NCBI RefSeq assembly: GCF_024700885.2
Contig: NZ_CP117016.1
Length of the DNA: 64,000 nucleotides
Direction: 5' to 3' (one strand)
From: Escherichia coli
GTDB taxonomy: Bacteria > Pseudomonadota > Gammaproteobacteria > Enterobacterales > Enterobacteriaceae
Below, piece after piece: positions 1-46,146 of the stretch (position 1 is its first letter; each line of letters opens with the position of its first letter). Made by a program: the position numbers and the translations under genes. The notes beneath the pieces were generated by a model. The model worked only from the letters and a program-made list of their open reading frames with translations. It ran no database searches and had not been told where the DNA came from.

Positions 1-214
1 CTTCGTGCAGTTCCATCTCTCCGGTGGCGAGCATCACAGCAAAATCTGGCGTATAGAACGTGTTGTCAGCTAACCGCAGCTTGATACCCTCGAATCGATA
101 CCAGGCGATTTCCCCTGCACGTTTACGCTGCTCAAGGTGCTGGCAATACGCAGATTCTGTTTTGTTCATCTGGCCTGTTTTGAGTCGACCAAGAGCCTGC
201 ATCTGTTTTCTCAT
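1..214 (-). CDS. Phage protein, 5' part only (runs off window); DUF1064-like PD-(D/E)XK-type fold suspected
   Basis: Reverse-strand ORF starting ATG at 212-214 with GAGGT SD 7 nt upstream; translation MRKQMQALGRLKTGQMNKTESAYCQHLEQRKRAGEIAWYRFEGIKLRLADNTFYTPDF...; sits directly downstream of P-like gene in same orientation. Confidence 0.45.
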   Translation of the reverse strand, partial: MRKQMQALGRLKTGQMNKTESAYCQHLEQRKRAGEIAWYRFEGIKLRLADNTFYTPDFAVMLATGEMELHE

Positions 215-279
215 GATTTACCTCTGAGGTAATTAAAAACCACATAAGACACGAAATCAATAGAGTTTAGAATATTTTA

Positions 280-294
280 TTACCTGATGGGTAA
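280..294. promoter_or_regulatory. Operator-like palindrome TTACCTGATGGGTAA
   Basis: Perfect TTACC-N5-GGTAA dyad in intergenic space between P-like gene and downstream ORF; same motif recurs in the immunity region. Confidence 0.35.
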
Positions 295-331
295 TTATTT
301 GAGCGTAAAAAAATGCGCTATCGCGCTGGTA

Positions 332-1132
332 TTACTTGATAAATCCTGCCGCCTTTCCCCGCCTGTATTCCTCCATCAGCCACTGCGCCGGTGTTATTCC
401 CCCAAGGGTGGCGGCGTTAGGCATGCATCCGAAACTTCGCCCTGGTGGATGGTAAACGTCTCTCCCTGTGTCCGGAGGTGTACTCATGGGCTCTGGCTTT
501 GCCTGTATGCTGATCACCGGATCGGGTATCTGCTGTCCGGAAGCCACCTTTTTCGCCCAATCATCGAGCAGCCTGCGCGCGTGTTTCTCAACCTCAATCT
601 CGCTAAGCTGGCGCTGATACATTGCACGGCGGGTATCACATACGACCCAGTACATAACCGGATGTCGCCACGGGAATCTTTCGGGACCACCAGGATATAA
701 ACTTTTTTCCTTGCTGTACCGGTGAAACTCCGCCATCACATCGTCAATGGTGACGCCAAGAACCATCTTGCTGTCTTTACACCACTTGATGAATTGCCCA
801 GGCGACGGCCAGAACGGAGATTCACTGGCGCGGGCGTGGCGCATACCAGCAGAAACCTGTTCACGGGTTCGGATCCCCCCTTCGGCAAACGCAGCAATCC
901 ACTGCTGTTTTGCAGCTACTTCCTGCCCTGGCGTCTTCAGGTTGGTTACCACTGCCGCCGGAAACAGTTGTTTCAGCTGTTTGAAAAGGGCATCAACAAG
1001 CCTCTCTGCTGACATGTTAACCACATTGTCATTGTTGACGTACTGATGCTCATAACCTGACATGCGAGAAAGGGCTTCTCCGTCACGGTTTTGTATCGCG
1101 GTAAAAACGTTGTTCACAAGAAATCCTCCCAT
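332..1132 (-). CDS. Lambda P-like replication protein (helicase loader)
   Basis: 266 aa ORF; segment PFWPSPGQFIKWCKD and FPAAV region parallel lambda P (PFLPSPGQFVAWCRE) as remembered; overlaps 3' end of O-like gene by 19 nt. Confidence 0.8.
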   Translation of the reverse strand: MGGFLVNNVFTAIQNRDGEALSRMSGYEHQYVNNDNVVNMSAERLVDALFKQLKQLFPAAVVTNLKTPGQEVAAKQQWIAAFAEGGIRTREQVSAGMRHARASESPFWPSPGQFIKWCKDSKMVLGVTIDDVMAEFHRYSKEKSLYPGGPERFPWRHPVMYWVVCDTRRAMYQRQLSEIEVEKHARRLLDDWAKKVASGQQIPDPVISIQAKPEPMSTPPDTGRDVYHPPGRSFGCMPNAATLGGITPAQWLMEEYRRGKAAGFIK

Positions 1133-1929
1133 GCTTCAGGGCTGTTCCAGTGCGGAACGTTGTTATCAGGTAATGTTGATTGCTTCTGTCTGCTAATCTG
1201 CAGCCGCCTTGCCAGCTTCTGCTCCCACTGTGCCTGATGGTATGCCTTACCCTCAGCCATCCAGTAAATTCTGAACTCTGCAAGTTCCTGTGCCGTTGGC
1301 AGACTGTCCAGGTAGATCCCCTGCAATGAGCTTTTCCGAAGAAAGTCATCTGATGGCTGCCATTGTTCATGCATGACAAATTTTCCTAATTGCCCTGGTC
1401 CACCAGGAGGAACAAAGTTATTCATCACGGCGTTGTTTGCTCCGGGGTCATGAGGCACAGAATCCCCGCTTTTTGTCCTGCTCTCCCTCTCTTGGTTAAA
1501 TGACTGGTTATATGACTGGTTCTGGATCCCGTTTTTGGGATCATTCAACATCCCGTTTTTGGGATCATTCAACATCCCGTTTTTGGGTATATTCCCGTTT
1601 TCGGGAACATTACCGTTTTCGGGTTCATTACGTCCTTCTAGGTTGCCTTTAATGTTCCCTTTTTTGGTTATATTAAGAGAGAAAACCCGCACTCTTTTCG
1701 TCGCTCCCTTTCTCTCTCCGGTATCTGAAATAAGCCCCATTTTCATGAGCGATATAAGCCCGGCCTGCACGGTTTTTTTATTCAGGCAAGTGTCTTTAAC
1801 GAGGCGTTCTATGCTGGGGTAGCAGAGGTTATATTCATCGGCTCTGTCAGCCATCGAGAGCAGTATGAGCTTTAATGACGAGCTACCTGGATCTGTCTCC
1901 CAGGCCCAATCTGTTGCATGTCTGCTCAT
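1114..1929 (-). CDS. Lambda O-like replication initiator with internal iterons
   Basis: 271 aa ORF with GGAGA SD; N-terminal HTH-like region; central repetitive linker (NGNVPENGNIPKNGMLNDPKNGMLNDPKNG) encoded by tandem DNA repeats; immediately upstream of P-like gene. Confidence 0.7.
   Translation of the reverse strand: MSRHATDWAWETDPGSSSLKLILLSMADRADEYNLCYPSIERLVKDTCLNKKTVQAGLISLMKMGLISDTGERKGATKRVRVFSLNITKKGNIKGNLEGRNEPENGNVPENGNIPKNGMLNDPKNGMLNDPKNGIQNQSYNQSFNQERESRTKSGDSVPHDPGANNAVMNNFVPPGGPGQLGKFVMHEQWQPSDDFLRKSSLQGIYLDSLPTAQELAEFRIYWMAEGKAYHQAQWEQKLARRLQISRQKQSTLPDNNVPHWNSPEAWEDFL
1526..1630. repeat. Iteron array (putative phage replication origin) inside O-like gene
   Basis: Two exact 24-bp tandem units ATCCCGTTTTTGGGATCATTCAAC (1526-1549, 1550-1573) followed by three degenerate units; core dyad CCCGTTTT(T/C)GGG occurs 5 times at 24/24/18/18 bp spacing; TGACTGGTT x2 at 1501-1522. 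Confidence 0.6.
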
Positions 1930-1944
1930 GATTAATCTCCGCTA

Positions 1945-2145
1945 TCAGCTTGAATGTTGTGGGGAGGAATTAATCATGATCTGCTTAATCTCAGCCCTGA
2001 TGCGACGGTTTGATTCCATGGTGCACTCAACACAGTGTCCGTTGTAAACCCAGCGTTCACTGTCATGTCCGTGCTTACATGGTTTTCCGGTGTAGTAGCG
2101 TTTAAGTCCGCGCTTTGCGGCATCAATACGTGTAATGATTTCCAT
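1945..2145 (-). CDS. Small zinc-ribbon-like phage protein (occupies cII position); start uncertain (ORF open to 2214)
   Basis: ORF with CxxH...CxxC pattern (YTGKPCKHGH...GHCVEC); located between Cro-like gene and O-like gene. Confidence 0.4.
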   Translation of the reverse strand: MEIITRIDAAKRGLKRYYTGKPCKHGHDSERWVYNGHCVECTMESNRRIRAEIKQIMINSSPQHSS

Positions 2146-2249
2146 GGTAAGCCCTGTTATTAGTATTGGGATTACGGTCATTTTGTGCTGACACAAAAAA
2201 AAGATCAACCACATTTGGTTTTTTATTACCCTTAAGGTGCGAATAGATA

Positions 2250-2274
2250 TGAAAAGACCGCCGGATGGCGGTCT
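2250..2274 (-). terminator. Intrinsic terminator downstream of Cro-like gene (tR1-like position)
   Basis: Reverse strand hairpin AGACCGCC-atcc-GGCGGTCT followed by TTTTC. Confidence 0.5.
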
Positions 2275-2295
2275 ACAGAGGGTTGTGGCTGGATA

Positions 2296-2526
2296 TCATG
2301 AGTAGAAGAAGTATGCCAATTCTGCTTTTGAGCGCAGCCATTGTCTTGTTTTACAGGCTTTAAAAAGCCCATTCATCAATACCTTACCTGGCATTTTGCG
2401 CTTACCTGTTAAGTGAGTCTGGATATAGTGACTCGTCGTTCCGGCTTCCTGTGCGAAGGCTTCACGCTCATCCGGAGTAAGTGCAAGCCAGTGCTTTTTG
2501 AAATCGAAATGTCCGTTATCGCTCAT
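2296..2526 (-). CDS. Cro/DicC-like small DNA-binding protein (putative)
   Basis: 76 aa ORF divergent from repressor gene across operator-containing intergenic region; weak SD. Confidence 0.5.
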   Translation of the reverse strand: MSDNGHFDFKKHWLALTPDEREAFAQEAGTTSHYIQTHLTGKRKMPGKVLMNGLFKACKTRQWLRSKAELAYFFYS

Positions 2527-2562
2527 AGCTATTGCCTGATATTTATTTCAGATAATAAATAT

Positions 2563-2625
2563 TCACCCATAAGGTAACAAAAATCAAGGATAGTTACCCA
2601 TGAGGTGCATTTACCTGTTGGGTAA
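2563..2625. promoter_or_regulatory. OR-like operator cluster (three TTACC-N5-GGTAA-type dyads) in divergent repressor/cro intergenic region
   Basis: TCACCCATAAGGTAA (2563-2577), TTACCCATGAGGTGC (2594-2608), TTACCTGTTGGGTAA (2611-2625). Confidence 0.55.
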
Positions 2626-2680
2626 TATTGCTTTAAATTGAATCATCTTCTGATTCATATATGAGGCGATTTTCCAGAAA

Positions 2681-3265
2681 ATGAAAAGTATCCAAGACGT
2701 CCGCAGGCAAAATCTCAACGACTTGATCGACCGTGAATTCAATGGTGTTCAGACGCGGATGGCTGAAAAACTTGGAACTCAGGCAAATCTGGTAAACCGC
2801 TGGGCTCTTGGCAAGAAGGTTATCGGCGACCAGGTTGCGCGAAAAATTGAAGCTGCCGCCAATAAACCACGTAACTGGCTTGATATCGATCGCTCGCTTT
2901 CTCAGGAGGGTTTTCAGCCTGTCGGACCAAGCGACATTGGTCAGCTGGCGGCTCACAACCTGGAACGCTGGATGAGCGAAAGCCGCGACCTTTCAACACA
3001 GGGAAAACTTCACCGCGCATCCGGCGTCGCCCAAGTGACAATCAGCCGCCTGTTAAACAATGAGGTCAGCGTTTCCATTTCCACCCTGGAGAATGTTGCA
3101 TCTGCATTCGGACGTCACGGATATGAACTACTGATTCACCCGCACGACCCTGCAACTATCAACTATGACCGCTCGCGCTACGCATTGTTACCTGAAACCG
3201 AGAAAGCAAAGATCGAAAGTTACATTGAATTTGTCATCAACCAGAACGAAAAAAACAAACAATAA
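2681..3265 (+). CDS. Prophage repressor-like protein with two HTH (XRE-type) domains; no S24 peptidase domain evident
   Basis: 194 aa ORF; two segments with HTH-like pattern (MAEKLGTQANLVNRWALGKK... and ASGVAQVTISRLLNNEVSVSISTLENVASAFG); divergent from Cro-like gene; followed by terminator. Confidence 0.6.
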   Translation: MKSIQDVRRQNLNDLIDREFNGVQTRMAEKLGTQANLVNRWALGKKVIGDQVARKIEAAANKPRNWLDIDRSLSQEGFQPVGPSDIGQLAAHNLERWMSESRDLSTQGKLHRASGVAQVTISRLLNNEVSVSISTLENVASAFGRHGYELLIHPHDPATINYDRSRYALLPETEKAKIESYIEFVINQNEKNKQ

Positions 3266-3285
3266 AATCATATTTTTCAGTAAGT

Positions 3286-3312
3286 AAGCCGCCAAATGGC
3301 GGCTTTTTTATT
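3286..3312 (+). terminator. Intrinsic terminator after repressor gene
   Basis: AAGCCGCC-aaat-GGCGGCTTTTTTATT. Confidence 0.6.
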
Positions 3313-3313
3313 G

Positions 3314-3390
3314 TCTATTTAATTACCTTGCAGGTAATTTTTTCAACTCATACCTATTGACATCAAACCAAATACGCATAATCATTACCT
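3314..3390 (+). promoter_or_regulatory. OL-like operator pair flanking candidate early promoter
   Basis: Perfect dyads TTACCTTGCAGGTAA (3314-3328) and TTACCTCAACGGTAA (3376-3390) bracket TTGACA (3348-3353) and a CATAAT-like -10; directly upstream of rightward early operon. Confidence 0.5.
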
Positions 3391-3418
3391 CAACGGTAAC
3401 AAGCTGAGGTAACAAGTT

Positions 3419-3571
3419 ATGCAGTGGAAAATCATCAACGGTTGGTACTGCGTTACTGCATGCGGATTCATGAGCTGGAAGTTCCGCACCTTACAGGAAG
3501 GCATTAAGTGGGCTTTCGTCAGCAAAGAAGCTCGCGATGTGGCCAACGATAACGAGATATGGGAGGGCTGA
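3419..3571 (+). CDS. Small hypothetical protein (50 aa), first ORF of early rightward operon
   Basis: ATG preceded by GAGGTAA SD; MQWKIINGWYCVTACGFMSWKFRTLQEGIKWAFVSKEARDVANDNEIWEG; not in ORF track (below length cut-off). Confidence 0.35.
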   Translation: MQWKIINGWYCVTACGFMSWKFRTLQEGIKWAFVSKEARDVANDNEIWEG

Positions 3572-3573
3572 TA

Positions 3574-3873
3574 ATGAACGTTAATCAGCAGCAAAATCTT
3601 CAAAAAATCATGCTGGCATTCGACAAGGACTACCGCCTGTCAGAACAGCTATATGACCGACAAGTTGAACTGATCGAAAGCATCCGGCTTCATCAACTAG
3701 CCTCAACTTTCGACGCTGTAACAGGTAAAGGCGTTCGCCAGGAAGTACTGGAGGCCGCTAAAGACAGTCCAGAGTTCGAAGAACTGATGGATTCCTACCG
3801 GCGCGAGGCAATGGCAATTATCGCCCGCTGGGATCTGGCTGATCAGCTTGATGGGCAGAGGGACGCGGCATGA
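3574..3873 (+). CDS. Hypothetical phage protein (99 aa)
   Basis: ATG at 3574 with GGAGGG SD 8 nt upstream (track start 3559 lacks SD); stop overlaps next gene start (ATGA). Confidence 0.55.
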   Translation: MNVNQQQNLQKIMLAFDKDYRLSEQLYDRQVELIESIRLHQLASTFDAVTGKGVRQEVLEAAKDSPEFEELMDSYRREAMAIIARWDLADQLDGQRDAA

Positions 3874-4691
3874 AGCCGGGAATTTATTTCGACATCAGCA
3901 ACGAAGACTACCACGCCGGGGACGGCGTGAGTAAGTCGCAACTGGACATGGTTGCCAAGAATCCGGCGCTTCTTAAATGGGTTCAGGCAGCACCAGAAGA
4001 CGAAGAGAAAAAGTCTGCACTGGATATGGGAACCGCATTGCACTGTCTGCTTCTGGAGCCTGGAGAATTCAACAAACGCTTCATTGTTTCACCGAAATTC
4101 GATCGTCGGACGAAACAAGGTAAAGCTGACGAAGAAGCATTTCTTCGTGATGTAGCGGATATGGGGATTACGGTACTTGATGCCGAGCAGTGGCGGAAAC
4201 TGGAGCTGATGCGTGATAGCGCAATGGCTCACCCGGCGGCACGCTGGATGCTGGAAGCACCTGGTTACTGCGAAGCATCAATGTACTGGAATGATGAAGA
4301 GACTGGTGAGTTGTGCCGCATTCGTCCAGACAAATGGCTGAACGAGCACAACGTGATCGTCGACGTGAAAAAGGTTGCAGATATGGACCGTTTTGCACGC
4401 CACATCGAGGAATTCCGCTACCACGTGCAGGACGCAATGTACCGCGAAGGAGCGATGAGGGTTACTGGTCAGTCGCATGGTTTTTTCTTTCTTGCCGTGA
4501 GCGAAAGCATTGATTGTGGTCGGTATCCGGTACGCGTGTTCGAGCTGGATGCGCCGGATGTCGATGCCGGGCACGCTCTGTTCCGCCGGGATCTGAATAC
4601 CTATCACGAATGCCGCATCAATGATGAATGGGGCGGCGTGGAAATTATTAAACGCCCTGACTGGGCACGTAAACAGGATATGTACGTATGA
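3870..4691 (+). CDS. PD-(D/E)XK-family phage exonuclease-like protein
   Basis: 273 aa; D...IVDVKK-type nuclease motif; translationally coupled to flanking genes. Confidence 0.6.
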   Translation: MKPGIYFDISNEDYHAGDGVSKSQLDMVAKNPALLKWVQAAPEDEEKKSALDMGTALHCLLLEPGEFNKRFIVSPKFDRRTKQGKADEEAFLRDVADMGITVLDAEQWRKLELMRDSAMAHPAARWMLEAPGYCEASMYWNDEETGELCRIRPDKWLNEHNVIVDVKKVADMDRFARHIEEFRYHVQDAMYREGAMRVTGQSHGFFFLAVSESIDCGRYPVRVFELDAPDVDAGHALFRRDLNTYHECRINDEWGGVEIIKRPDWARKQDMYV

Positions 4692-5569
4692 GCAATGATA
4701 TCGCAATCACATCACAACCAGGCGCAACTGTAGGTACTGCTGCGGCAATCTTCAGCCCGGAGGGCATGAATCAACTGGTGCGTTTCGCGGAGTTGATGTC
4801 ACAAAGCAAAGCGACTGTACCGAAACATCTTGAAGGCAAACCTGCCGATTGTCTGGCGGTGACCATGCAGGCGGCACAGTGGGGAATGAACCCTTTCGCC
4901 GTGGCGCAGAAAACGCATGTGGTAAACGGAACGTTAGGCTACGAAGCACAGTTGGTAAACGCGGTCGTATCCTCTTCCAGCCTGCTAGCGACACGCCTGA
5001 ATTATCGCTGGAGCGGTGACTGGTCGAATGTTAACGGCAAAACAGATAAATCACCGAATCTGACGGTAACTGTGTCAGCAGTTCTTAAAGGAGAAGCAGA
5101 ACCCCGTGAGCTTACCATCAGTATGGCGCAAGCCGGAGTGCGTAACTCTCCATTGTGGGAACAGGATCCGCGCCAGCAGCTTGCCTATCTTTGCACGAAA
5201 CGATGGGCTCGCCTGCACGCTCCTGATGTACTTCTCGGTGTTTACACCCCTGACGAATTACAGGAAACGGCACCGCGCGTTGAGCGAGACATTACTCCGC
5301 AAACGACTACTGCTGCGGGAATGAACAGTCTGATCAACGCTAAACCAGTGAAAAAGCCTGATGAGCAAACGCGTAAAGCGGATAGCCGTGATCCAGAAGA
5401 AATGCTGATGGCCTTTACCAGCGCAGCGATGAATTACAGCACTGTCTCCGAACTGGATAAGGCTTACAAATACATTGCACAAAAACTTTCAGATGATGAC
5501 GAACTGCTGGCAAAAGCCACCGACGTTTACAGCGTTCGTCGGGAAGAATTAAACGAAACATCTATGTAA
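4688..5569 (+). CDS. Putative single-strand annealing recombination protein (RecT/Bet-like); family assignment tentative
   Basis: 293 aa ORF start-stop overlapping the exonuclease gene (ATGA), the typical exo/SSAP arrangement. Confidence 0.4.
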   Translation: MSNDIAITSQPGATVGTAAAIFSPEGMNQLVRFAELMSQSKATVPKHLEGKPADCLAVTMQAAQWGMNPFAVAQKTHVVNGTLGYEAQLVNAVVSSSSLLATRLNYRWSGDWSNVNGKTDKSPNLTVTVSAVLKGEAEPRELTISMAQAGVRNSPLWEQDPRQQLAYLCTKRWARLHAPDVLLGVYTPDELQETAPRVERDITPQTTTAAGMNSLINAKPVKKPDEQTRKADSRDPEEMLMAFTSAAMNYSTVSELDKAYKYIAQKLSDDDELLAKATDVYSVRREELNETSM

Positions 5570-5618
5570 CCACCACCGCGGCGCCACGCGCGCCGCACTG
5601 CAACCAAGAGAGGTATTT

Positions 5619-5867
5619 ATGAAAGGTGCATTAGGTAAGAAGGAACTCCTGGCGGTGGTGCCACTGTCATGGAGCACTATCGACCGTATGGAGCGCGCAG
5701 GGGAATTTCCTAAACGCTGGTATATCACCGATAAACGCTGCGCATGGAACCGTGATGAAGTTGAGCGTTGGCTTGATGAACGTCAGGCAGCAAGCCCGGC
5801 AGAGTTCCAGGGTAAAAAACCTCCTGTTCAGCAACGTGTATATCGTCCTGTGAGCAACGCGGCATGA
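5619..5867 (+). CDS. AlpA-family phage transcriptional regulator / excisionase-like protein
   Basis: 82 aa; pattern LSWSTIDRMERAGEFPKRWYI...WNRDEVERWL typical of AlpA-type HTH; AGAGAGG SD. Confidence 0.7.
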   Translation: MKGALGKKELLAVVPLSWSTIDRMERAGEFPKRWYITDKRCAWNRDEVERWLDERQAASPAEFQGKKPPVQQRVYRPVSNAA

Positions 5868-5976
5868 GTGTGCTGCTAAGGCACTGGAGCAAATGGTCAG
5901 GATGGTACTTATTCCTGGCCTCTGTTTCAGCATGGCTTTATCTGCTGGCATTAATTTTCAGAGAGGGTTGGATTAA

Positions 5977-6276
5977 GTGAGAAAGTTAAGCCGACTTGAA
6001 AAATATCACATGAACAAGGTTTCAATGCGCAGCCCTTCAAAGGTTGTTGCCGTTACTCCTGCGGCGATAGAGATCGAAAAACGCGCGATTGAAAGAGAGA
6101 AAAAAGGGCAGTTCCGCATTGCCGCCCACCTTTGGCTTCAGTGTATGGATGTTGCTTCTGGTGATGTTGAACGTGCAAGGATCGCGGTTCGCAGGGACCA
6201 ATGTATCACAAAAGGTAACGGCCTTCGCCGTGGCGACTATAGCGGCATAGGATGTTGTGGGGTGGTTTATGACTAA
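5977..6276 (+). CDS. PerC-like small regulator (putative); GTG start
   Basis: 99 aa; RIAAHLWLQCMDV...DVERARIAVRRDQCI resembles PerC-family pattern; GAGGGT SD before GTG 5977. Confidence 0.4.
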   Translation: MRKLSRLEKYHMNKVSMRSPSKVVAVTPAAIEIEKRAIEREKKGQFRIAAHLWLQCMDVASGDVERARIAVRRDQCITKGNGLRRGDYSGIGCCGVVYD

Positions 6277-6919
6277 GAAATACACACTAATCTATGCAGA
6301 TCCACCCTGGGCATACCGGGACAAAGCCACAGATGGTAATCGCGGTGCCGGTTTTAAATATCCGGTTATGAGTGTGCTGGATATCTGCCGCCTTCCTGTG
6401 TGGGATTTGGCCGGTGAAAACTGTCTGTTGGCCATGTGGTGGGTGCCAACACAACCACTCGAAGCACTAAAAGTTGTTGAAGCCTGGGGATTCCGTCTGA
6501 TGACCATGAAGGGCTTCACGTGGATAAAATGTGGTAGTCGACAACCAGATAAACTGGTTATGGGGATGGGACACATGACTCGCGCCAACAGTGAAGATTG
6601 CCTGTTTGCGGTAAAGGGAAAACTACCTCCGCGCATTAATGCAGGTATCGTTCAGTCATTTACCGCACCGCGGCTTGAGCATTCAAGAAAACCAGATGTC
6701 GTTCGTGAAAAACTTGTGCAATTGTTAGGCGATGTTTCTCGCATTGAACTGTTCGCCCGCCAGTCGTCTCATGGCTTCGATGTTTGGGGTAATCAGTGCG
6801 AAGACCCGGCAGTGCAACTACACCCAGGATACGCGTTGGATATTGCCGGATTAACAAATGCATTCAGCAATGCTCCGCTGTCACCAACAGACAACCAGGG
6901 GCGGGAGCGTGCAGCATGA
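6269..6919 (+). CDS. MT-A70 family DNA N6-adenine methyltransferase
   Basis: DPPW catalytic motif (LIYADPPWAY); ATG 6269 preferred over GTG 6257; stop overlaps next ORF. Confidence 0.75.
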   Translation: MTKKYTLIYADPPWAYRDKATDGNRGAGFKYPVMSVLDICRLPVWDLAGENCLLAMWWVPTQPLEALKVVEAWGFRLMTMKGFTWIKCGSRQPDKLVMGMGHMTRANSEDCLFAVKGKLPPRINAGIVQSFTAPRLEHSRKPDVVREKLVQLLGDVSRIELFARQSSHGFDVWGNQCEDPAVQLHPGYALDIAGLTNAFSNAPLSPTDNQGRERAA

Positions 6920-7110
6920 ACAGGGCATCACCAGCAGATTTAAGGAAATGCCTTGAAACTGCAAACATGCTTGCACACAGCGGGATCAGGTTTGTTCCAA
7001 TTCCCGCTGTCACTGATGCTGAATTTGCAACACTGTCAGCAATATTCACAGATAAAATTGAATCACTGGCAGCAGAAGCCGAGATGGAAGAAAATCAGCA
7101 GAACTATTAA
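6916..7110 (+). CDS. Small hypothetical phage protein (64 aa)
   Basis: ATG overlapping MTase stop (ATGA); MNRASPADLRKCLETANMLAHSGIRFVPIP...; convergent with integrase. Confidence 0.4.
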   Translation: MNRASPADLRKCLETANMLAHSGIRFVPIPAVTDAEFATLSAIFTDKIESLAAEAEMEENQQNY

Positions 7111-7113
7111 ACG

Positions 7114-8364
7114 TTATTCCCCCGCCATCCACTTCTCAAACTTCGACGGGGAGAACGGAATCAGATCCGTATGCTCCCCGTTAATCCAGGAATCAATCAT
7201 ATCGGCCCACTGCTGCAACATGTAGGCGCGCTGTCTGGCGTATTCCGCTTTGTTATATACGGCGCGCACACCTTTCTGCTCATGTGCCAGAGCCTTTTCA
7301 ATCCAGTCTGAAGGATAACCAGCCTCATGCAACAACGTACTGGCTGTACGGCGCATATCGTGTACGGTGAAGTCCTGAATATGCTCACCATCTTCATTTA
7401 TTATTTTCACCGTTCTGTCGATCAGAGAGTTCAGCGCGGCATTAGATAATGGCTTCCGGAAATTGTAACGACCAGGAACCAGATATTCACTTCCACCAGC
7501 GCACATCTGCAACCCGACCAATATATCCTGAACCTGTTTAGGCAGGTAAATAACATGCGCCCGGCTTCCCTTCATGCGGTCTGAAGGAATTGTCCATGTC
7601 CATTTTTTAAAATCTATTTCATCCCACGTTGCATTGGTGAATTCGCCCTTACGAACCATAGTGATAAGCACCAGTTTTAAAGCCATTTTCATAGTGCCCA
7701 TAGCACCAATGGCATCCAACGTGCGGAAGAACAGGCCAATTTCTTCTGGTGTCAGTGTTCGCTCTCGTGGTTTAAATATGGCGATAGACGAAGGTTTAAT
7801 GTCAGCCGCAGGATTAAACAAACCATGACCACGGTCATTGGCGTGACGGTATACGCTGCTGATGATCTCCCTGGCCTGTACTGCTGTTGCCCGACCACCG
7901 CGTTCGACAATCCGGTCACACAAATCACGAACCATCGATGTGGTAATTTCAGCCATCATTTTGTTGCCAAGAACCGGAAGTATGTCACGGTCGATCACCG
8001 CCTGCTTCATTGCGCGGGTACTGTCAGCCAGGATGACGTGTTTCATATAACTGTCGGTATGTACCGCAAACGTCTCGGCACCACGAATTTTTTTGATACC
8101 GTCACGTTTAGCCGCAGCCGGCGACTGGCCTGCTTTAAGCAGCTTCTTTGCAGCAATCAGTTCTTCTCGCGCTTCTGCCAGGCTGATACCGTCACGCCCA
8201 TACTGCCCGATTACCAGTGTTTCGCGGCGACCGTTGATACGGTAGTCATAGCGAAACGAGACCGTGCCTGACGTAAGCACAGCTACATACAGCCCGTCAC
8301 GATCGGAGACCTTGTACAGTTTGTCCTGCGGCTTGAGGTTTTTTAATTTTGTATCGGTAAGCAC
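7114..8364 (-). CDS. int: Tyrosine site-specific integrase (P4-type)
   Basis: 416 aa; N-terminal MLTDTKLKNLKP typical of P4-like integrases; R..H..R..Y catalytic region near C-terminus (HDMRRTASTLL, AHEQKGVRAVYNKAEY). Confidence 0.9.
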   Translation of the reverse strand: MLTDTKLKNLKPQDKLYKVSDRDGLYVAVLTSGTVSFRYDYRINGRRETLVIGQYGRDGISLAEAREELIAAKKLLKAGQSPAAAKRDGIKKIRGAETFAVHTDSYMKHVILADSTRAMKQAVIDRDILPVLGNKMMAEITTSMVRDLCDRIVERGGRATAVQAREIISSVYRHANDRGHGLFNPAADIKPSSIAIFKPRERTLTPEEIGLFFRTLDAIGAMGTMKMALKLVLITMVRKGEFTNATWDEIDFKKWTWTIPSDRMKGSRAHVIYLPKQVQDILVGLQMCAGGSEYLVPGRYNFRKPLSNAALNSLIDRTVKIINEDGEHIQDFTVHDMRRTASTLLHEAGYPSDWIEKALAHEQKGVRAVYNKAEYARQRAYMLQQWADMIDSWINGEHTDLIPFSPSKFEKWMAGE

Positions 8365-8392
8365 AATTCACCCGTATAGAAACCATTTTCAT

Positions 8393-8428
8393 GACGGTAT
8401 GAGAGTATACCTTTAAGGTAATACCGTC
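8393..8428. promoter_or_regulatory. Nested palindrome upstream of integrase start (candidate int operator or att-arm site)
   Basis: GACGGTAT...ATACCGTC outer inverted repeat enclosing TACCTTTAAGGTA, a near-copy of the TTACC-N5-GGTAA motif. Confidence 0.35.
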
Positions 8429-8480
8429 ACCTGTACCGCCGAAAAATATGGTGTAGAGTGAATAGAAATGAATACATAAA

Positions 8481-8510
8481 AACAAAAACCCCCTGCAAAA
8501 ACAGAGGGTT
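8481..8510 (-). terminator. Intrinsic terminator downstream of guaA
   Basis: Reverse strand CCCUCUG-UUUUU-CAGGGGG hairpin followed by UUUUUGUU. Confidence 0.55.
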
Positions 8511-8556
8511 GAGTTGGCATCTGAATAGGAATGATTTGCTATGAGTTAGCTGTTAA

Positions 8557-10134
8557 TCATTCCCACTCAATGGTAGCTGGCGGCTTGCCGCTGATGTCAT
8601 ACACCACGCGGGAAATACCGTTCACTTCATTGATAATGCGGTTGGAAACGCGACCGAGGAAATCGTACGGCAGATGCGCCCAGTGTGCGGTCATAAAGTC
8701 GATGGTTTCGACAGCACGCAGAGAAACAACCCAGTCATACTTACGACCATCGCCCATTACACCAACGGAACGTACCGGCAGGAAGACGGTGAACGCCTGG
8801 CTGACTTTGTCGTACAGGTCCGCTTTACGCAGTTCTTCAATAAAGATGGCGTCAGCACGGCGCAGCAGGTCGCAGTACTCTTTCTTCACTTCGCCCAGTA
8901 CACGAACGCCGAGGCCTGGTCCCGGGAACGGGTGACGGTACAGCATGTCGTACGGCAGGCCCAGCTCCAGACCAATCTTACGCACTTCGTCTTTGAACAG
9001 CTCTTTCAGCGGTTCAACCAGCCCCATCTTCATCTCTTTCGGCAGGCCGCCCACGTTGTGGTGAGATTTGATGACGTGTGCTTTACCGGTTGCAGACGCC
9101 GCAGATTCGATAACGTCAGGGTAGATAGTACCCTGCGCCAGCCACTTCACGTCTTCCAGTTTCAGCGCTTCTTCATCGAATACTTCAACGAAAACGCGCC
9201 CGATGATTTTACGTTTTGCTTCCGGATCGTTTTCGCCGGCCAACGCTGACAGGAAGCGATCTTCTGCCGGAACGTGAACAATGTTCAGACCAAAGTGATC
9301 GCCAAACATATCCAGAACCTGCTCTGCTTCGTTGAGACGCAGCAGGCCGTTGTCGACGAATACGCAAGTCAGGTTTTTACCGATAGCGCGGTGCAGCAGC
9401 ATTGCGGTTACGGAGGAATCCACACCACCAGAGAGGCCGAGGATGACTTTATCGTCGCCTACCTGCTCGCGGATGCGAGCTACAGCATCGTCGATAATTT
9501 TCGCTGGCGTCCACAGGGCTTCACACTGGCAGATATCTCGCACAAAGCGCTCCAGCATGCGCATACCCTGGCGGGTGTGAGTCACTTCCGGGTGGAACTG
9601 TACGCCATAGAAGCGTTTTTCTTCGTTAGCCATAATGGCAAACGGGCAGCTTTCGGTGCTGGCTACGGTGACGAAGTCGGACGGGATAGCGGTAACTTTA
9701 TCGCCGTGGCTCATCCAGACATCGAGCAGAGGTTTACCGTCTGCGGTCAGAGCATCTTCAATACCGCGAACCAGTGCGCTGTCGTTTACGACTTCAACCT
9801 GCGCGTAGCCAAATTCACGTTCGTTAGAGGCTTCAACGTGACCGCCCAACTGCATTGCCATGGTCTGCATGCCATAGCAAACGCCGAATACCGGTACGCC
9901 TGCTTCAAAAACATACTGCGGCGCACGCGGGCTGTTTTCTTCGGTGGTGCTTTCCGGGCCGCCGGAAAGAATAATGCCGCTTGGGTTGAAGTCACGAATT
10001 TGTGCTTCTGTCACATCCCACGCCCACAGTTCGCAGTAAACGCCCAGCTCACGCACGCGGCGCGCAACCAGTTGAGTATACTGGGAACCGAAGTCCAGAA
10101 TGAGGATGCGATGCTTATGAATGTTTTCCGTCAT
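8557..10134 (-). CDS. guaA: GMP synthase (glutamine-hydrolysing)
   Basis: 525 aa; C-terminus ...PPATIEWE; GATase and ATP-PPase motifs (SGGVDSS). Confidence 0.97.
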
Positions 10135-29883: not shown

Positions 29884-30089
29884 TTTTCATCCCTGCCACA
29901 ATGGCCCGTTAGCAACGTCGAATAATTATTATGCGTGAGAATTTACGTTATGTAATTCAGTATCACGCCCATACAATCCGAATTTTAGTGAGAATTGTGG
30001 CTCAGACAGCCAAATCAGCCTCTTTTGCTTGTCGCTTTTCACTAAACATCCGACAATTTAGCCTAACCCCGGCAAAAATGGAGATGCCT

Positions 30090-30935
30090 ATGTCCACGAC
30101 ATGGTTTGTAGGAGCCGACTGGCTCGCCGAACATATTGATGACCCGGAAATTCAGATTATCGATGCCCGCATGGCGTCGCCTGGACAGGAAGATCGTAAC
30201 GTTGCTCAGGAGTATCTGAATGGACATATTCCCGGCGCAGTGTTTTTTGATATAGAAGCGCTTTCTGATCACACTTCCCCGCTTCCGCACATGCTGCCGC
30301 GCCCGGAAACGTTCGCCGTGGCGATGCGTGAATTAGGCGTTAACCAGGACAAGCACCTGATTGTCTATGACGAAGGTAATCTTTTCTCAGCCCCACGAGC
30401 ATGGTGGATGCTGCGCACCTTTGGTGTAGAGAAAGTGTCGATTCTGGGTGGTGGACTTGCAGGCTGGCAGCGCGATGATCTGCTGTTAGAAGAAGGTGCA
30501 GTAGAGCTGCCGGAAGGAGAGTTTAACGCCACGTTTAATCCTGAAGCCGTGGTGAAAGTCACCGATGTGTTATTGGCAAGCCATGAAAATACGGCGCAAA
30601 TTATTGATGCCCGCCCGGCTGCACGTTTTAACGCAGAAGTTGATGAACCTCGCCCAGGTTTACGTCGCGGACATATTCCCGGTGCATTGAACGTTCCGTG
30701 GACGGAACTGGTGCGCGAAGGCGAACTAAAAACGACCGATGAACTGGATGCTATATTTTTTGGTCGCGGCGTCAGCTATGACAAACCGATTATCGTCAGC
30801 TGCGGCTCTGGTGTAACGGCAGCCGTGGTTTTGTTGGCACTCGCGACGCTGGATGTGCCAAACGTGAAAATGTACGACGGCGCATGGAGTGAATGGGGCG
30901 CACGGGCAGATTTACCGGTTGAGCCAGTGAAATAA
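30090..30935 (+). CDS. sseA: 3-mercaptopyruvate sulfurtransferase
   Basis: Start set to MSTTWFVGADWL (track ORF begins 53 codons upstream); tandem rhodanese domains. Confidence 0.93.
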   Translation: MSTTWFVGADWLAEHIDDPEIQIIDARMASPGQEDRNVAQEYLNGHIPGAVFFDIEALSDHTSPLPHMLPRPETFAVAMRELGVNQDKHLIVYDEGNLFSAPRAWWMLRTFGVEKVSILGGGLAGWQRDDLLLEEGAVELPEGEFNATFNPEAVVKVTDVLLASHENTAQIIDARPAARFNAEVDEPRPGLRRGHIPGALNVPWTELVREGELKTTDELDAIFFGRGVSYDKPIIVSCGSGVTAAVVLLALATLDVPNVKMYDGAWSEWGARADLPVEPVK

Positions 30936-30951
30936 GCTTTTTACAGGCAAT

Positions 30952-30982
30952 AAAAAACCGCCGAATTTGGCGGTTTTTTATT
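30952..30982 (+). terminator. Intrinsic terminator after sseA
   Basis: AAAAAACCGCC-gaattt-GGCGGTTTTTTATT. Confidence 0.6.
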
Positions 30983-30985
30983 GTG

Positions 30986-31690
30986 CACAGAAAACCCCCA
31001 GCTAGGCTGGGGGTTCCGGAAAGCTTTCAGCTTTGAGCCAGTTATTAAAACCCCTTTTGATTTGTTAAAACACCTTGCGGTCTGGCAACTGCAAGTGTCA
31101 AACAAGAAATCAAAAGGGGGTCCCAATGGGGGACGAAAAGAGCTTAGCGTACACCCGCTGGAACTGTAAATATCACATAGTTTTTGCGCCGAAATACCGA
31201 AGACTGGCGTTTTACGGAGAGAAGCGTAGGGCGATAGGCAGTATTTTGAGAAAGCTGTGTGAGTGGAAAAGCGTACGGATTCTGGAAGCAGAGTGCTGCG
31301 CAGATCATATCCATATGCTTGTGGAAATCCCACCCAAAATGAGCGTATCCGGCGTTATGGGATATCTGAAAGGGAAAAGCAGTCTGATGCTTTACGAGCA
31401 GTTTGGGGATTTGAAATTCAAATACAGAAACAGGGAGTTCTGGTGCCGAGGGTACTATGTCGATACGGTGGGTAAGAACACGGCGAAGATACAGGACTAC
31501 ATAAAGCACCAGCTTGAAGAGGATAAAATGGGGGAGCAGTTATCGATTCCATATCCGGGCAGCCCGTTTACGGGCCGTAAGTAACGAAGTTGAATGCAAA
31601 TGTCAGATCGTATGCGCCTGTTAGGGCGCGGCTGGTAACAGAGCCTTACAGGCGCATTTGAAAAACCTCCGGCTATGCCGGAGGATATTT
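30986..31690 (+). mobile_element. IS200-like insertion sequence (IS200/IS605 family); ends approximate
   Basis: Y1 transposase gene plus upstream hairpins: CCCCCAGCTAGGCTGGGGG (left-end terminator-like) and CCCCTTTTGATTT...AAATCAAAAGGGG pairing that would sequester the tnpA SD. Confidence 0.6.
31126..31584 (+). CDS. tnpA: IS200 transposase TnpA (HUH/Y1)
   Basis: 152 aa from MGDEKSLAYTRWNCKYHIVFAPKYRR; HUH motif (HIHML) and catalytic Tyr region (GYYVDTVG). Confidence 0.9.
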   Translation: MGDEKSLAYTRWNCKYHIVFAPKYRRLAFYGEKRRAIGSILRKLCEWKSVRILEAECCADHIHMLVEIPPKMSVSGVMGYLKGKSSLMLYEQFGDLKFKYRNREFWCRGYYVDTVGKNTAKIQDYIKHQLEEDKMGEQLSIPYPGSPFTGRK

Positions 31691-31692
31691 AT

Positions 31693-31960
31693 TTGCTGGT
31701 CTGGTTCGCGGCCTTTCCAGCAGGTTGTATTACTGCAAGTGTATCTCGTCTACTCAATACTCGCTTTATGCATCAACGATGTCAAGTAGATAAAAAAGGA
31801 TAGATTTTGAATTCATTTGGCTTATCAGTCCGAATTCAGACAAATATAAACAAATCCCGCTTAATATTAAAATATACTAACTGGTAAAAGATATTACTTA
31901 AACGTGTAATTTCACTTTCTTTAAACAACAAAAAACCGCCAAAATCAGGCGGTTTTTTGT
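31693..31960 (+). ncRNA. Candidate sRNA-like element, copy 1 (RyfA-family position between sseA and sseB)
   Basis: Starts with conserved block TTGCTGGTCTGGTTCGCGGCCTTTCCAGCAGGTT shared with copy 2; ends at intrinsic terminator 31931-31960; no convincing ORF. Confidence 0.3.
31931..31960 (+). terminator. Intrinsic terminator
   Basis: AAAAACCGCC-aaaatca-GGCGGTTTTTTG. Confidence 0.55.
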
Positions 31961-32408
31961 TGCTGGTTTGGTTCGCGGCCTTTCCAGCAGGTTCACTTGT
32001 GTTGCATGAACAACGCAGGTGCCTCACAGCAAAAGAATACTCGCTGTTAAGAAATTTTGTGTCAAGTAAAAAACGAGTAATTATTTTTCGGTTAGCGTAT
32101 TATCGACACCGGCCCTTTCCGCCGTCTCGCAAACGGGCGCTGGCTTTAGGAAAGGATGTTCCTTGGCCGTAAATGCAAGTGTATCTCGTCGCTTGCTATC
32201 GCGGCAATATCGCCAGTGGTGATGTCGTGATGCGGTCTTCGCATGGACCGCACAATGAAGATACGGTGCTTTTGTATCGTACTTATTGTTTCTGGTGCGC
32301 TGTTAACCGAGGTAAATAATAACCGGAGTCTCTCCGGCAACAATTTATTGGTGGTTAACAACCTTCAGAACAGCAGGTAAACCCGAATGCCGCCCTTTGG
32401 GGCGGCAT
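31961..32408 (+). ncRNA. Candidate sRNA-like element, copy 2
   Basis: Repeat of the conserved 5' block plus shared AATACTCGCT and TGCAAGTGTATCTCGTC segments; ends at hairpin 32387-32408. Confidence 0.25.
32387..32408. terminator. Hairpin between copy-2 element and sseB 3' end (possible bidirectional terminator)
   Basis: ATGCCGCCC-tttg-GGGCGGCAT with T-rich flank. Confidence 0.45.
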
Positions 32409-43575: not shown

Positions 43576-44856
43576 ATGATGCCTACGCTTGCTCCACCAT
43601 CTGTCCTTTCGGCTCCCCAGCGCCGCTGCCAGATCTTGCTGACACTCTTTCAGCCGGGGTTGACCGCCACCACGGCAACTTTCAGCGAGCTTAATGGTGT
43701 GGATGATGATATTGCCAGTCTTGATATCAGCGAAACAGGACGTGAGATCCTGCGCTATCATCAACTCACACTGACTACTGGTTATGACGGTAGCTACCGG
43801 GTTGAAGGTACAGTGCTTAACCAACGTTTGTGTTTATTTCACTGGCTACGACGTGGTTTCCGTCTGTGTCCGTCATTTATTACCAGCCATTTCACCCCCG
43901 CCCTGAAGAGTGAACTGAAGCGGCGCGGAATTGCGCGTAACTTTTACGACGATACCAATCTACAAGCGTTAGTGAATCTCTGCTCCCGACGGCTGCAAAA
44001 ACGCTTTGAAACGCGCGATATTCATTTCCTGTGTCTGTATCTGCAATATTGTTTGCTGCAACACCACGCTGGAATTACGCCTCAGTTTAATCCGCTCCAA
44101 CGTCGCTGGGCGGAATCCTGCCTTGAATTTCAGGTAGCGCAGGAAATTGGACGCCACTGGCAGCGTCGGGCGCTCCAGCCTGTACCGCCTGATGAGCCAC
44201 TGTTTATGGCATTACTTTTTTCCATGTTGCGGGTTCCCGATCCACTGCGGGATGCGCATCAGCGGGACAGACAACTGCGTCAGTCTATCAAACGTCTGGT
44301 AAACCATTTTCGTGAGCTGGGAAATGTTCGTTTTTATGATGAACAGGGGTTATGCGATCAGCTTTATACCCACCTCGCCCAGGCGTTAAATCGCAGTTTG
44401 TTTGCCATCGGTATTGATAACACCCTGCCGGAAGAGTTCGCCCGCCTGTATCCACGCCTGGTGCGCACCACCCGCGCGGCGCTGGCCGGATTTGAAAGTG
44501 AATACGGCGTCCATCTTTCTGATGAGGAAAGCGGTCTGGTCGCGGTGATTTTCGGTGCCTGGCTAATGCAGGAAAACGACCTGCATGAGAAACAGATTAT
44601 TCTACTGACCGGGAATGATAGCGAGCGAGAAGCGCAGATTGAGCAGCAGCTACGCGAACTAACGTTACTGCCGCTCAACATTAAACATATGTCGGTAAAG
44701 GTATTTTTGCAGACAGGCGCTCCGCGTGGCGCGGCACTGATTATTGCTCCTTATACCATGCCGTTACCGCTCTTTTCACCACCGCTGATCTATACGGACC
44801 TGACACTGACAACACATCAACAGGAGCAGATCCGCAAAATGCTCGAATCAGCATGA
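43576..44856 (+). CDS. csiE: Stationary-phase inducible protein CsiE
   Basis: Start set to MMPTLAPPSV; PRD-like domains. Confidence 0.88.
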   Translation: MMPTLAPPSVLSAPQRRCQILLTLFQPGLTATTATFSELNGVDDDIASLDISETGREILRYHQLTLTTGYDGSYRVEGTVLNQRLCLFHWLRRGFRLCPSFITSHFTPALKSELKRRGIARNFYDDTNLQALVNLCSRRLQKRFETRDIHFLCLYLQYCLLQHHAGITPQFNPLQRRWAESCLEFQVAQEIGRHWQRRALQPVPPDEPLFMALLFSMLRVPDPLRDAHQRDRQLRQSIKRLVNHFRELGNVRFYDEQGLCDQLYTHLAQALNRSLFAIGIDNTLPEEFARLYPRLVRTTRAALAGFESEYGVHLSDEESGLVAVIFGAWLMQENDLHEKQIILLTGNDSEREAQIEQQLRELTLLPLNIKHMSVKVFLQTGAPRGAALIIAPYTMPLPLFSPPLIYTDLTLTTHQQEQIRKMLESA

Positions 44857-45987: not shown

Positions 45988-46146
45988 GAGTCCCTCCCGT
46001 CAGGAGGCGTTAGTCTGGAGTTAATCGAATGTTGGTGCAAGTTGAAAAATAAGAATATTCGAGCCTGCTTCCCGATGTCTGTAACGCCAGTTCACAAGCA
46101 CTCAAAAACTGCGATCCGTGACGCATGTTGCAAAGATAATGCGTAA

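Follow-up and report, generated by a model that had tools for sequence, protein, structure and literature searches.

The window, by which we mean the whole stretch of 64,000 nucleotides that was analysed, is E. coli chromosome with a phiV10/ε15-type prophage adjoining guaA, and the prophage lies only partly inside it. We present the results for four consecutive genes of this prophage, all on the plus strand, together with their immediate surroundings. The first gene of the operon encodes a 50-aa protein (3419-3571) and stops 2 nt before the ATG of a gene for a 99-aa protein (3574-3873). It is followed by the gene for a 273-aa PD-(D/E)XK nuclease of the RecE type (3870-4691, ATG to TGA) and by the gene for a 293-aa annealing protein, hereafter annealase (4688-5569, ATG to TAA). 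The following gene of the operon (5619-5867, plus strand) encodes an AlpA-like excisionase/regulator (Pfam Phage_AlpA, 3.1e-5; phrog_66, 2e-16). A GC hairpin at 5578-5596, directly after the annealase stop, was considered as a terminator and rejected, as it has no T-run and a z-score of −1.6. The four opposite-strand ORFs scanned inside the nuclease and annealase genes (74-142 aa) matched no PHROG family, and no Rfam family was matched in positions 1-9000 of the window.

The initial annotation had described the nuclease gene as overlapping both of its neighbours by ATGA, and the ORF coordinates agree. Positions 4688-4691 are common to the nuclease and annealase ORFs (…GTACGTATGAGC…), and the TGA of the 99-aa gene at 3871-3873 overlaps the nuclease ATG at 3870 in the same manner (…GCGGCATGAAGC…). 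A Shine-Dalgarno-like AGGA lies 10 nt upstream of the overlap at 4688-4691. Although the longest ORF of the 99-aa gene opens at 3559, translation probably starts at the ATG at 3574: in the longer ORF the phrog_856 match sets in at residue 6, a GGGAGGG Shine-Dalgarno sequence is located 6 nt upstream of 3574, and the RefSeq start is identical. We compared the arrangement with that of related phages. The 4-nt overlap of exonuclease and annealase genes is kept in Escherichia phage TL-2011b, Klebsiella phage BUCT711, Enterobacter phage Tyrion and Erwinia phage phiEt88, and the exonuclease-annealase order is found together with the overlap in five phage lineages. In SPN1S an HNH gene is inserted between the nuclease and annealase genes.

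Upstream of the operon, a sigma-70 promoter-like site (TTGACA-17-AATCAT, 3357-3385, plus strand) came top of the promoter scan with 10/12. It is situated downstream of a terminator-like hairpin (3286-3305), which itself follows the gene of a 194-aa repressor (2681-3265). Two operator-like palindromes flank the site: TTACCTTGCAGGTAA (3323-3337) lies just upstream of the −35 hexamer and TTACCTCAACGGTAA (3385-3399) abuts the −10 hexamer. Both were found in a scan for TTACC-N5-GGTAA, which with at most one mismatch gave 12 matches in the window compared to 0.92 expected, and 12 matches were reached in none of 100 shuffles. Six of the matches (218, 280, 2563, 2611, 3323 and 3385) group in the regulatory regions of the prophage. 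The palindromes are candidate binding sites of the repressor. Promoter-like sites as such are not above chance in this region (5 observed, 5.8 expected from shuffled sequence), so that the assignment of 3357-3385 as a candidate PL-like early-left promoter of the operon rests on its position and on the flanking operators.

For the nuclease the earlier call as a PD-(D/E)XK enzyme proved correct, and the family could be narrowed down to the RecE C-terminal type. The protein matches Pfam PF12684 (DUF3799) with 80.1 bits (cut-off 26, E 2.7e-22), phrog_412 ‘exonuclease VIII’ with 1e-125 and, across residues 12-268, the RecE C-terminal domain of PDB 3H4R with a phmmer E-value of 5.3e-78. PF12684 was the sole family matched in the Pfam scan, and a match to the λ Exo/YqaJ family was absent. 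BLASTP aligns the protein to residues 595-862 of Rac RecE with 49% identity over 268 residues and zero gaps. Conserved in this alignment are H58, D154 (RPD), D165 and K167 (DVK), and Q187 and Y191 (QDAMY), which stand opposite H652, D748, D759, K761, Q781 and Y785 of RecE; the latter are reportedly, in the paper on 3H4R, the catalytic residues of that enzyme. Against the profile of full-length exodeoxyribonuclease VIII (NF007259) the protein reaches 313.4 bits, under the cut-off of 1269, and covers profile positions 606-873 out of 877. Judged by these alignments the nuclease is the catalytic C-terminal domain of RecE only, and the roughly 590 N-terminal residues are absent. A RecE construct starting at residue 588 can, together with RecT, substitute for λ redαβ (PMC3945230), so the N-terminal part is dispensable in Rac.

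The second gene had been proposed to encode an annealing protein on the basis of its context and a loose pattern similarity. Profile searches and the predicted core fold now support this directly, and they place the protein in the RecT/Redβ family and not in an unrelated one. Pfam RecT (PF03837) is matched with 110.3 bits (cut-off 24, E 1.2e-31), compared to 188.9 bits for Rac RecT and 115.6 bits for λ Bet as controls. The match spans residues 35-197 of the protein (4790-5278, plus strand) and positions 2-188 of the 198 profile positions. The match to phrog_561 has an E-value of 1.7e-145. In the AlphaFold model the core is confident, and its best match among the solved structures listed is the N-terminal domain of λ Redβ (7UJL); the solved Listeria RecT structure was absent from the fold matches listed. 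An hhalign comparison with λ Bet gave an E-value of 4.3e-5 across Redβ residues 35-201, a stretch that includes W..P…ARL…G.Y..DE…ERDITP. Searching the PDB by sequence, with the single protein or with an 87-sequence profile, retrieved no solved annealase, only weak chance-level matches of the tail to Gp77 and UvsW.1 (E about 0.5). The core is followed by a linker of low confidence (about residues 198-235, pLDDT 49-76) and by three helices (236-247, 253-266 and 271-292, pLDDT about 97) that form a C-terminal bundle (residues 236-292; 5393-5563, plus strand). By analogy with Redβ this bundle is a candidate adaptor for binding a partner.

It is tempting to regard the pair as a plain orthologue of Rac RecE/RecT, in which case the annealase would be a narrow-sense RecT. 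Nuclease and annealase genes are arranged in the same order in Rac and overlap there too, by 8 nt. The nuclease domains of the two systems agree at 49% of positions and share the PD…DVK motif, and the databases call the second protein ‘RecT’. The chemistry expected from the sequences would also be the same, with 5'-3' resection followed by annealing that is independent of ATP. However, the annealase shows no detectable similarity to Rac RecT: pairwise BLASTP gave an E-value of 0.52 and hhalign of the 87-sequence profile a probability of 0.2%. The narrow RecT model TIGR00616 (IPR004590) was not matched up to an E-value of 10, whereas Rac RecT as the control scored 415.7 bits. The annealase is also nearer to Redβ, both by profile and by fold, and the nuclease of 273 aa, equivalent to RecE 595-862, comes without the long N-terminal part. 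The narrow RecT reading of the annealase is thus already contradicted, and plain orthology of the pair with Rac RecE/RecT is very improbable.

The annealase is equally missed by the narrow Bet model TIGR01913 (IPR010183; no match up to an E-value of 10, control λ Bet 169.5 bits). Across NCBIfam there were zero matches, which is evidence against both a narrow RecT and a narrow Bet. A subgroup of the RecT/Redβ superfamily named EHAP1-like was reportedly defined by Iyer et al. in 2002. It is described as specific to E. coli and Salmonella (PMC8093625). The sequence comparisons fit an assignment of our annealase to this third, EHAP1/enterohemolysin-1-like branch, somewhat nearer to Redβ and distinct from the Rac-type RecT. 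The placement is indirect and goes via labelled relatives: the counterpart in TL-2011b, located in DNA 96.3% identical to the window, carries the label ‘enterohemolysin 1’ in JQ011317, and relatives in Klebsiella prophages are labelled ‘enterohemolysin’ or ‘RecT family enterohemolysin’.

Taken literally, these GenBank labels would make the second gene a toxin gene, enterohemolysin 1. Domain and fold are those of RecT/Redβ, though, and the RefSeq re-annotation of the TL-2011b gene reads RecT-like annealing protein. Furthermore, the title of Oscarsson et al. 2002, as it is cited in PMC4164713, says that ehly1 and ehly2 encode no enterohemolysins but bring about the release of ClyA. As far as this title goes, the literature refutes an enterohemolysin identity of the annealase, and we consider the chance that the gene encodes a toxin to be practically nil.

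The comparison with λ Red shows how the parts are combined differently. In the λ protein, too, a small helical domain at the C-terminus follows the core, the λ gene pair has a 4-nt overlap of its own, and in both cases the genes belong to an early-left operon adjoining the immunity region. In contrast, the partner nuclease here is of the RecE type and not of the λ Exo type, bet precedes exo in λ, opposite to the order here, the annealase falls below the TIGR01913 threshold and the module contains no recognisable Gam. RecT of Gifsy-2, which is counted in the EHAP1-like branch as well, is 47% identical to our annealase across residues 2-204 and bears no similarity to it in the C-terminal tail. 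The partner in Gifsy-2 is a distantly related RecE-like protein of 961 aa with 27-31% identity to our nuclease in two fragments. When derepressed, the recET orthologues of Gifsy prophages suppress recombination defects (PMC3121763), which is genetic evidence for a role in recombination. The lineages have been reassorted, with a Rac-like nuclease next to a Gifsy-like annealase, which bears on the question of how partner specificity is encoded.

The genes and their context are also shared with phiV10, where gp37 is named ‘RecET’. Its nuclease part is 97% identical and its annealase is unchanged over the last 107 residues (100% identity), whereas the annealase core is another, mosaic allele that carries an insertion of 20 residues and brings the overall identity down to 74%. 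In addition, about 20 nt ahead of the annealase start codon, phiV10 has one extra A (CGT-AAACAGG to CGCAAAACAGG). This removes the nuclease stop and results in a single fused ORF of 586 aa, which argues that the nuclease and annealase act together. O157 typing phages 9 and 10 also carry a nuclease-annealase fusion. We rejected a programmed frameshift as a route to such a fusion in the window, since the annealase frame is interrupted by a TAA at 4670-4672, 18 nt ahead of the ATG, with no slippery heptamer in the interval.

The two genes might still be mere neighbours, with the nuclease used for degradation of host DNA or for anti-defence and the annealase acting by itself on single-stranded DNA at replication forks. 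In λ Red the annealases alone are enough for oligonucleotide recombination, and the insertion that splits the pair in SPN1S has apparently cost neither gene. Many phages moreover encode a RecE-like nuclease although no recombinase has been recognised in their genomes (PMC2896510). Against this, the 4-nt coupling is kept across genera, the two proteins are naturally fused in phiV10 and the typing phages, and the nuclease is closely related to a RecE domain that is sufficient for recombination with RecT. The PADLOC defence models gave zero matches against the four genes. Independent roles are therefore improbable, a slight chance at best.

Both genes form an ordinary recombination module of an E. 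coli prophage that had already been annotated as such. Identical proteins are labelled ‘RecT family recombinase’ and ‘PD-(D/E)XK nuclease-like protein’ in RefSeq, and DNA similar to the region is present in 565 of 5426 complete E. coli genomes. One could argue that the prophage is decaying and that the two genes are silent remnants without function. Only part of the prophage is found in the window, and the recombination genes of Rac are cryptic in K-12. Several observations speak against decay: both ORFs are intact with the catalytic residues kept, at least 1000 contigs carry the exact annealase sequence and 174 the exact nuclease sequence, and the annealase is 99-100% identical to its counterparts in sequenced phages (e.g. 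vB_EcoP_ZX5, phiv142-3 and HEMP4). Loss of function is hence hardly to be expected.

We conclude, with a probability of about 0.85, that the pair is the module for homologous recombination of a temperate phage of the phiV10/ε15 type integrated beside guaA and consists of a RecE-type exonuclease and a probably EHAP1-like annealase. Once the prophage repressor is inactivated, the PL-like promoter between the two operator-like palindromes would probably fire. The transcript would comprise the 50-aa and 99-aa genes, the nuclease, the annealase, the AlpA-like regulator, a PerC-like activator, an MT-A70 methylase and a DUF1382 gene. The ATGA overlaps are expected to couple translation of the 99-aa protein, the nuclease and the annealase, and the three proteins would thus be made together. 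At a double-strand end the nuclease would then digest the 5'-ended strand and leave a 3' single-stranded tail, which the annealase could coat and anneal to complementary single-stranded DNA without ATP. As in Redβ, the C-terminal bundle of the annealase probably serves for docking, with the nuclease, SSB or both as the partner. As the nuclease is Rac-like and the annealase Gifsy-like, a physical interaction of the two proteins is an assumption of this model. The literature searched yielded neither an experiment on this particular pair nor a recombineering test of an EHAP1-like annealase.

The finding matters little beyond the correct annotation, as this is a standard phage module carried by roughly a tenth of the complete E. 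coli genomes. The label ‘RecT’ nevertheless probably masks membership in a third, little-studied EHAP1-like branch, and both the compact native pair and the natural fusion of phiV10 might be tried out in recombineering.

The roles of the two small genes are less clear-cut. The 50-aa protein matches phrog_898 (1.9e-38) and carries the label ‘hypothetical’ both in RefSeq and in phiV10. The 99-aa protein matches phrog_856 (7.9e-55) and has no match in Pfam (E-values up to 1), NCBIfam or PADLOC. No more than 53 clusters were found for it, the named ones coming from Escherichia, Salmonella, Shigella, Citrobacter and Kluyvera. The AlphaFold model is all-helical with three helices and of low confidence (pLDDT 68); a Foldseek search with this model returned nothing significant and no Gam, and an hhalign comparison with RacC gave nothing. 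We did observe a weak, local hhalign match to residues 100-132 of λ Gam (33 columns, probability 10-12%, score about 22). Shuffled versions of the protein scored 11.0 ± 2.1 with a maximum of 19.9, and none of the 300 shuffles reached the real score. The resemblance to λ Gam suggested by this match is thus weak and confined to a short segment. A bolder reading would combine the 99-aa protein as a Gam-like RecBCD inhibitor or accessory protein, the C-terminal bundle as adaptor and a fully active phiV10 fusion into a three-part Red-like cassette of 2 kb, which we regard as doubtful. If it held, an exchangeable C-terminal bundle would enable a Redβ-like annealase to cooperate with a nuclease of the RecE type, and the nuclease-annealase fusion of phiV10 would be a natural recombinase in one polypeptide.

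The initial annotation interpreted the nuclease and annealase genes as a Red/RecET-like recombination module. At the level of sequence this interpretation is supported, and the pair appears to be a phage recombination module that is already known and annotated. Reading of the sequence also confirmed the described gene overlaps: the nuclease ORF (3870-4691, + strand, 273 aa) and the annealase ORF (4688-5569, + strand, 293 aa) have the ATGA at 4688-4691 in common, and the preceding small gene, orf99, ends at 3873, its last bases overlapping the nuclease start (3870) by an ATGA. The most likely start of orf99 is the ATG at 3574, yielding 99 aa, because GGGAGGG lies 6 nt upstream, the phrog_856 profile starts there and the RefSeq start is identical. 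Upstream of it, orf50 (3419-3571, 50 aa) has its stop 2 nt before this ATG, and Shine-Dalgarno-like elements were found ahead of all four starts (orf50, orf99, nuclease and annealase). Four opposite-strand ORFs (74-142 aa) were scanned and none matched a PHROG family; an Rfam search of positions 1-9000 found no family. A 7-bp all-G/C hairpin (5578-5596) separates the stop of the annealase from the AlpA-like gene; it has no T-run, and a z-score of -1.6 marks its folding energy as unremarkable.

The assignment of the first protein to the PD-(D/E)XK nucleases holds. PF12684 (PDDEXK-like DUF3799, 80 bits) was the sole family in the Pfam scan, and 'exonuclease VIII' of PHROGs matched with 1e-125. 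The PDB sequence search returned a single match, the E. coli RecE C-terminal domain 3H4R (E 5.3e-78), and against full-length RecE of the Rac prophage the nuclease aligned gaplessly with residues 595-862 at 49% identity. H58, D154, D165, K167, Q187 and Y191 align with RecE H652, D748, D759, K761, Q781 and Y785, the active-site residues of RecE. The score for the NCBIfam model of full-length ExoVIII (313 bits) is far under the cut-off of 1269, because roughly 590 N-terminal RecE residues are absent from the nuclease. These ∼590 residues are dispensable: De Paepe et al. put RecE from residue 588 together with RecT in place of λ redαβ and obtained Red-like recombination (PMC3945230). The 273-aa nuclease is thus the counterpart of the minimal functional RecE.

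The second gene had originally been called an annealing protein from context and loose pattern similarity, and three sources now support that call. Residues 35-197 match Pfam RecT (PF03837) with 110 bits (cut-off 24, E 1.2e-31), phrog_561 ('RecT-like ssDNA annealing protein') matches with 1.7e-145, and the exact sequence, present on at least 1000 contigs, bears the NCBI name recombinase RecT. As a name for the annealase, 'RecT' is imprecise. The BLASTP comparison with Rac RecT was not significant (E 0.52), and a profile of 87 sequences, each representing a 50%-identity cluster, gave no significant alignment with Rac RecT and aligned with λ Bet (35-201, E 4.3e-5). TIGR00616 (RecT subfamily) and TIGR01913 (Bet) both failed to match the annealase; as controls, the two models recovered Rac RecT (415.7 bits) and Bet (169.5 bits), respectively. 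These results therefore place the annealase in a third branch of the RecT/Redβ superfamily. Its AlphaFold model, computed from the 87-sequence alignment, is confident (mean pLDDT 89): a core of mixed α/β structure (residues about 17-191) is joined by a linker of low confidence (about 198-235) to a confident three-helix bundle (236-292). Indirect evidence points to the 'EHAP1-like' subgroup of Iyer et al. 2002 for the annealase; according to PMC8093625 this subgroup is specific to E. coli and Salmonella. The orthologue in phage TL-2011b (JQ011317, 1489-2370) is 'enterohemolysin 1' in the original GenBank record and relatives are annotated 'RecT family enterohemolysin'. Oscarsson et al. 2002 state in their title (cited in PMC4164713) that the enterohemolysin label is a misnomer, and the history of the label is given in PMC6784236. 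Several GenBank records of the family still carry this historical misannotation, which continues to propagate.

A tblastn search traced the annealase branch to 77 phage records, among them Gifsy-2, SPN3UB and mEp237; the hosts include Escherichia, Salmonella, Klebsiella, Enterobacter, Erwinia, Yersinia, Sodalis and Vibrio. The RecT of Gifsy-2 is 47% identical to the window annealase across residues 2-204; the C-terminal tails are wholly different. Gifsy-2 RecT is paired with a 961-aa RecE-like protein whose similarity to the window nuclease is only remote. There are therefore three distinct pairings: Rac-type nuclease with classical RecT in Rac, another RecE-like nuclease with an EHAP1-like annealase in Gifsy-2, and a Rac-type nuclease domain with an EHAP1-like annealase in the phage type of the window. 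[quoted passage not shown] In phage phiV10 the nuclease is 97% identical to that of the window; the annealases are 74% identical overall, with a 20-residue insertion in phiV10. We located a mosaic junction within the annealase gene (window 4688-5569, phiV10 4284-5225): residues 1-186 represent an allele that differs from phiV10 and does not have its 20-residue segment, whereas residues 187-293 are 100% identical. As tail and nuclease are nearly identical to phiV10 while the core allele differs, the tail may be a partner-specific adaptor, analogous to the Redβ C-terminal domain, a reading that the pattern fits but does not prove.

The 4-nt nuclease/annealase overlap also occurs in TL-2011b, Klebsiella phage BUCT711, Enterobacter phage Tyrion and Erwinia phage phiEt88. 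In λ the bet/exo overlap is likewise 4 nt, whereas recE and recT of Rac overlap by 8 nt. Two phages depart from the overlap in an informative way. In phiV10, gp37 (3465-5225) is a single nuclease-annealase ORF of 586 aa; comparison of the junction with window 4660-4691 attributes this to an A-run that is one A longer, some 20 nt ahead of the annealase ATG, so that the nuclease frame continues into that of the annealase. The exact fusion protein is found on three contigs only, its accessions come from phiV10 and O157 typing phages 9 and 10, and the remaining members of its cluster are separate 313-aa annealases. In the window a fusion by frameshifting is not expected, since a stop (TAA, 4670-4672) lies in the annealase frame ahead of its ATG. 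Salmonella phage SPN1S lacks the direct overlap of the other phages, as an HNH endonuclease gene (1581-1991), perhaps inserted as a homing endonuclease, separates the two genes.

The position of orf99 mirrors that of gam in λ. The protein matched nothing in Pfam, NCBIfam or PADLOC and belongs to phrog_856, a PHROG of unknown function; our search found only 53 clusters, the named ones from Escherichia, Salmonella, Shigella, Citrobacter and Kluyvera. Its AlphaFold model is all-helical with low confidence, and a fold search with this model was uninformative. With hhalign, residues 100-132 of λ Gam gave a short local alignment (probability 10-12%, score 22), whose score 300 Gam sequences with shuffled residues did not exceed (mean 11.0, sd 2.1, max 19.9); since shuffling destroys helical periodicity, the resemblance is a lead and no more.

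The local gene layout is lambdoid. The minus strand carries replication genes and a Cro-like gene, and a 194-aa double-HTH repressor (2681-3265, + strand) is followed by a terminator-like hairpin (3286-3305). The + strand operon then comprises orf50, orf99, nuclease, annealase, AlpA-like, PerC-like, MT-A70 methylase and DUF1382 genes and is convergent with the integrase. The top promoter-like site of the region (TTGACA-17-AATCAT, 3357-3385) lies after the hairpin, flanked by two perfect TTACC-N5-GGTAA palindromes, those starting at 3323 and 3385. This palindrome occurs 12 times in the window (at most one mismatch) compared to 0.92 expected, and half of the matches fall in prophage control regions (218-232, 280-294, 2563-2577, 2611-2625, 3323-3337 and 3385-3399). 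The pair at 218 and 280 lies close to the P-like helicase-loader gene, immediately beyond its 3' end. The site at 3357-3385 resembles a PL-type promoter under repressor control, which would agree with Gifsy recET being repressed in lysogens; we can only infer this, as the total count of promoter-like sites in the region is not above chance.

The prophage is of the phiV10 / ε15 / TL-2011b type (Uetakevirus and relatives), and phages 97.6-98.3% identical across the region include HEMP4, vB_EcoP_PAS61, phiv142-3 and vB_EcoP_ZX5. E. coli strain MLI114 has a chromosomal sequence 100% identical to the 2.5-kb region, and of 5426 complete E. coli genomes 565 contain similar DNA. Further down the operon (5977-7110) are the PerC-family activator, the MT-A70 DNA methyltransferase and the DUF1382 protein, whose family also includes λ orf63 (exo-xis region). 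The integrase (7114-8364, minus strand) adjoins guaA-guaB-xseA. In the host part of the window, 30001-32000 (GC 0.48, GC skew +0.10) and 44001-46000 (AT skew +0.17) are composition outliers.
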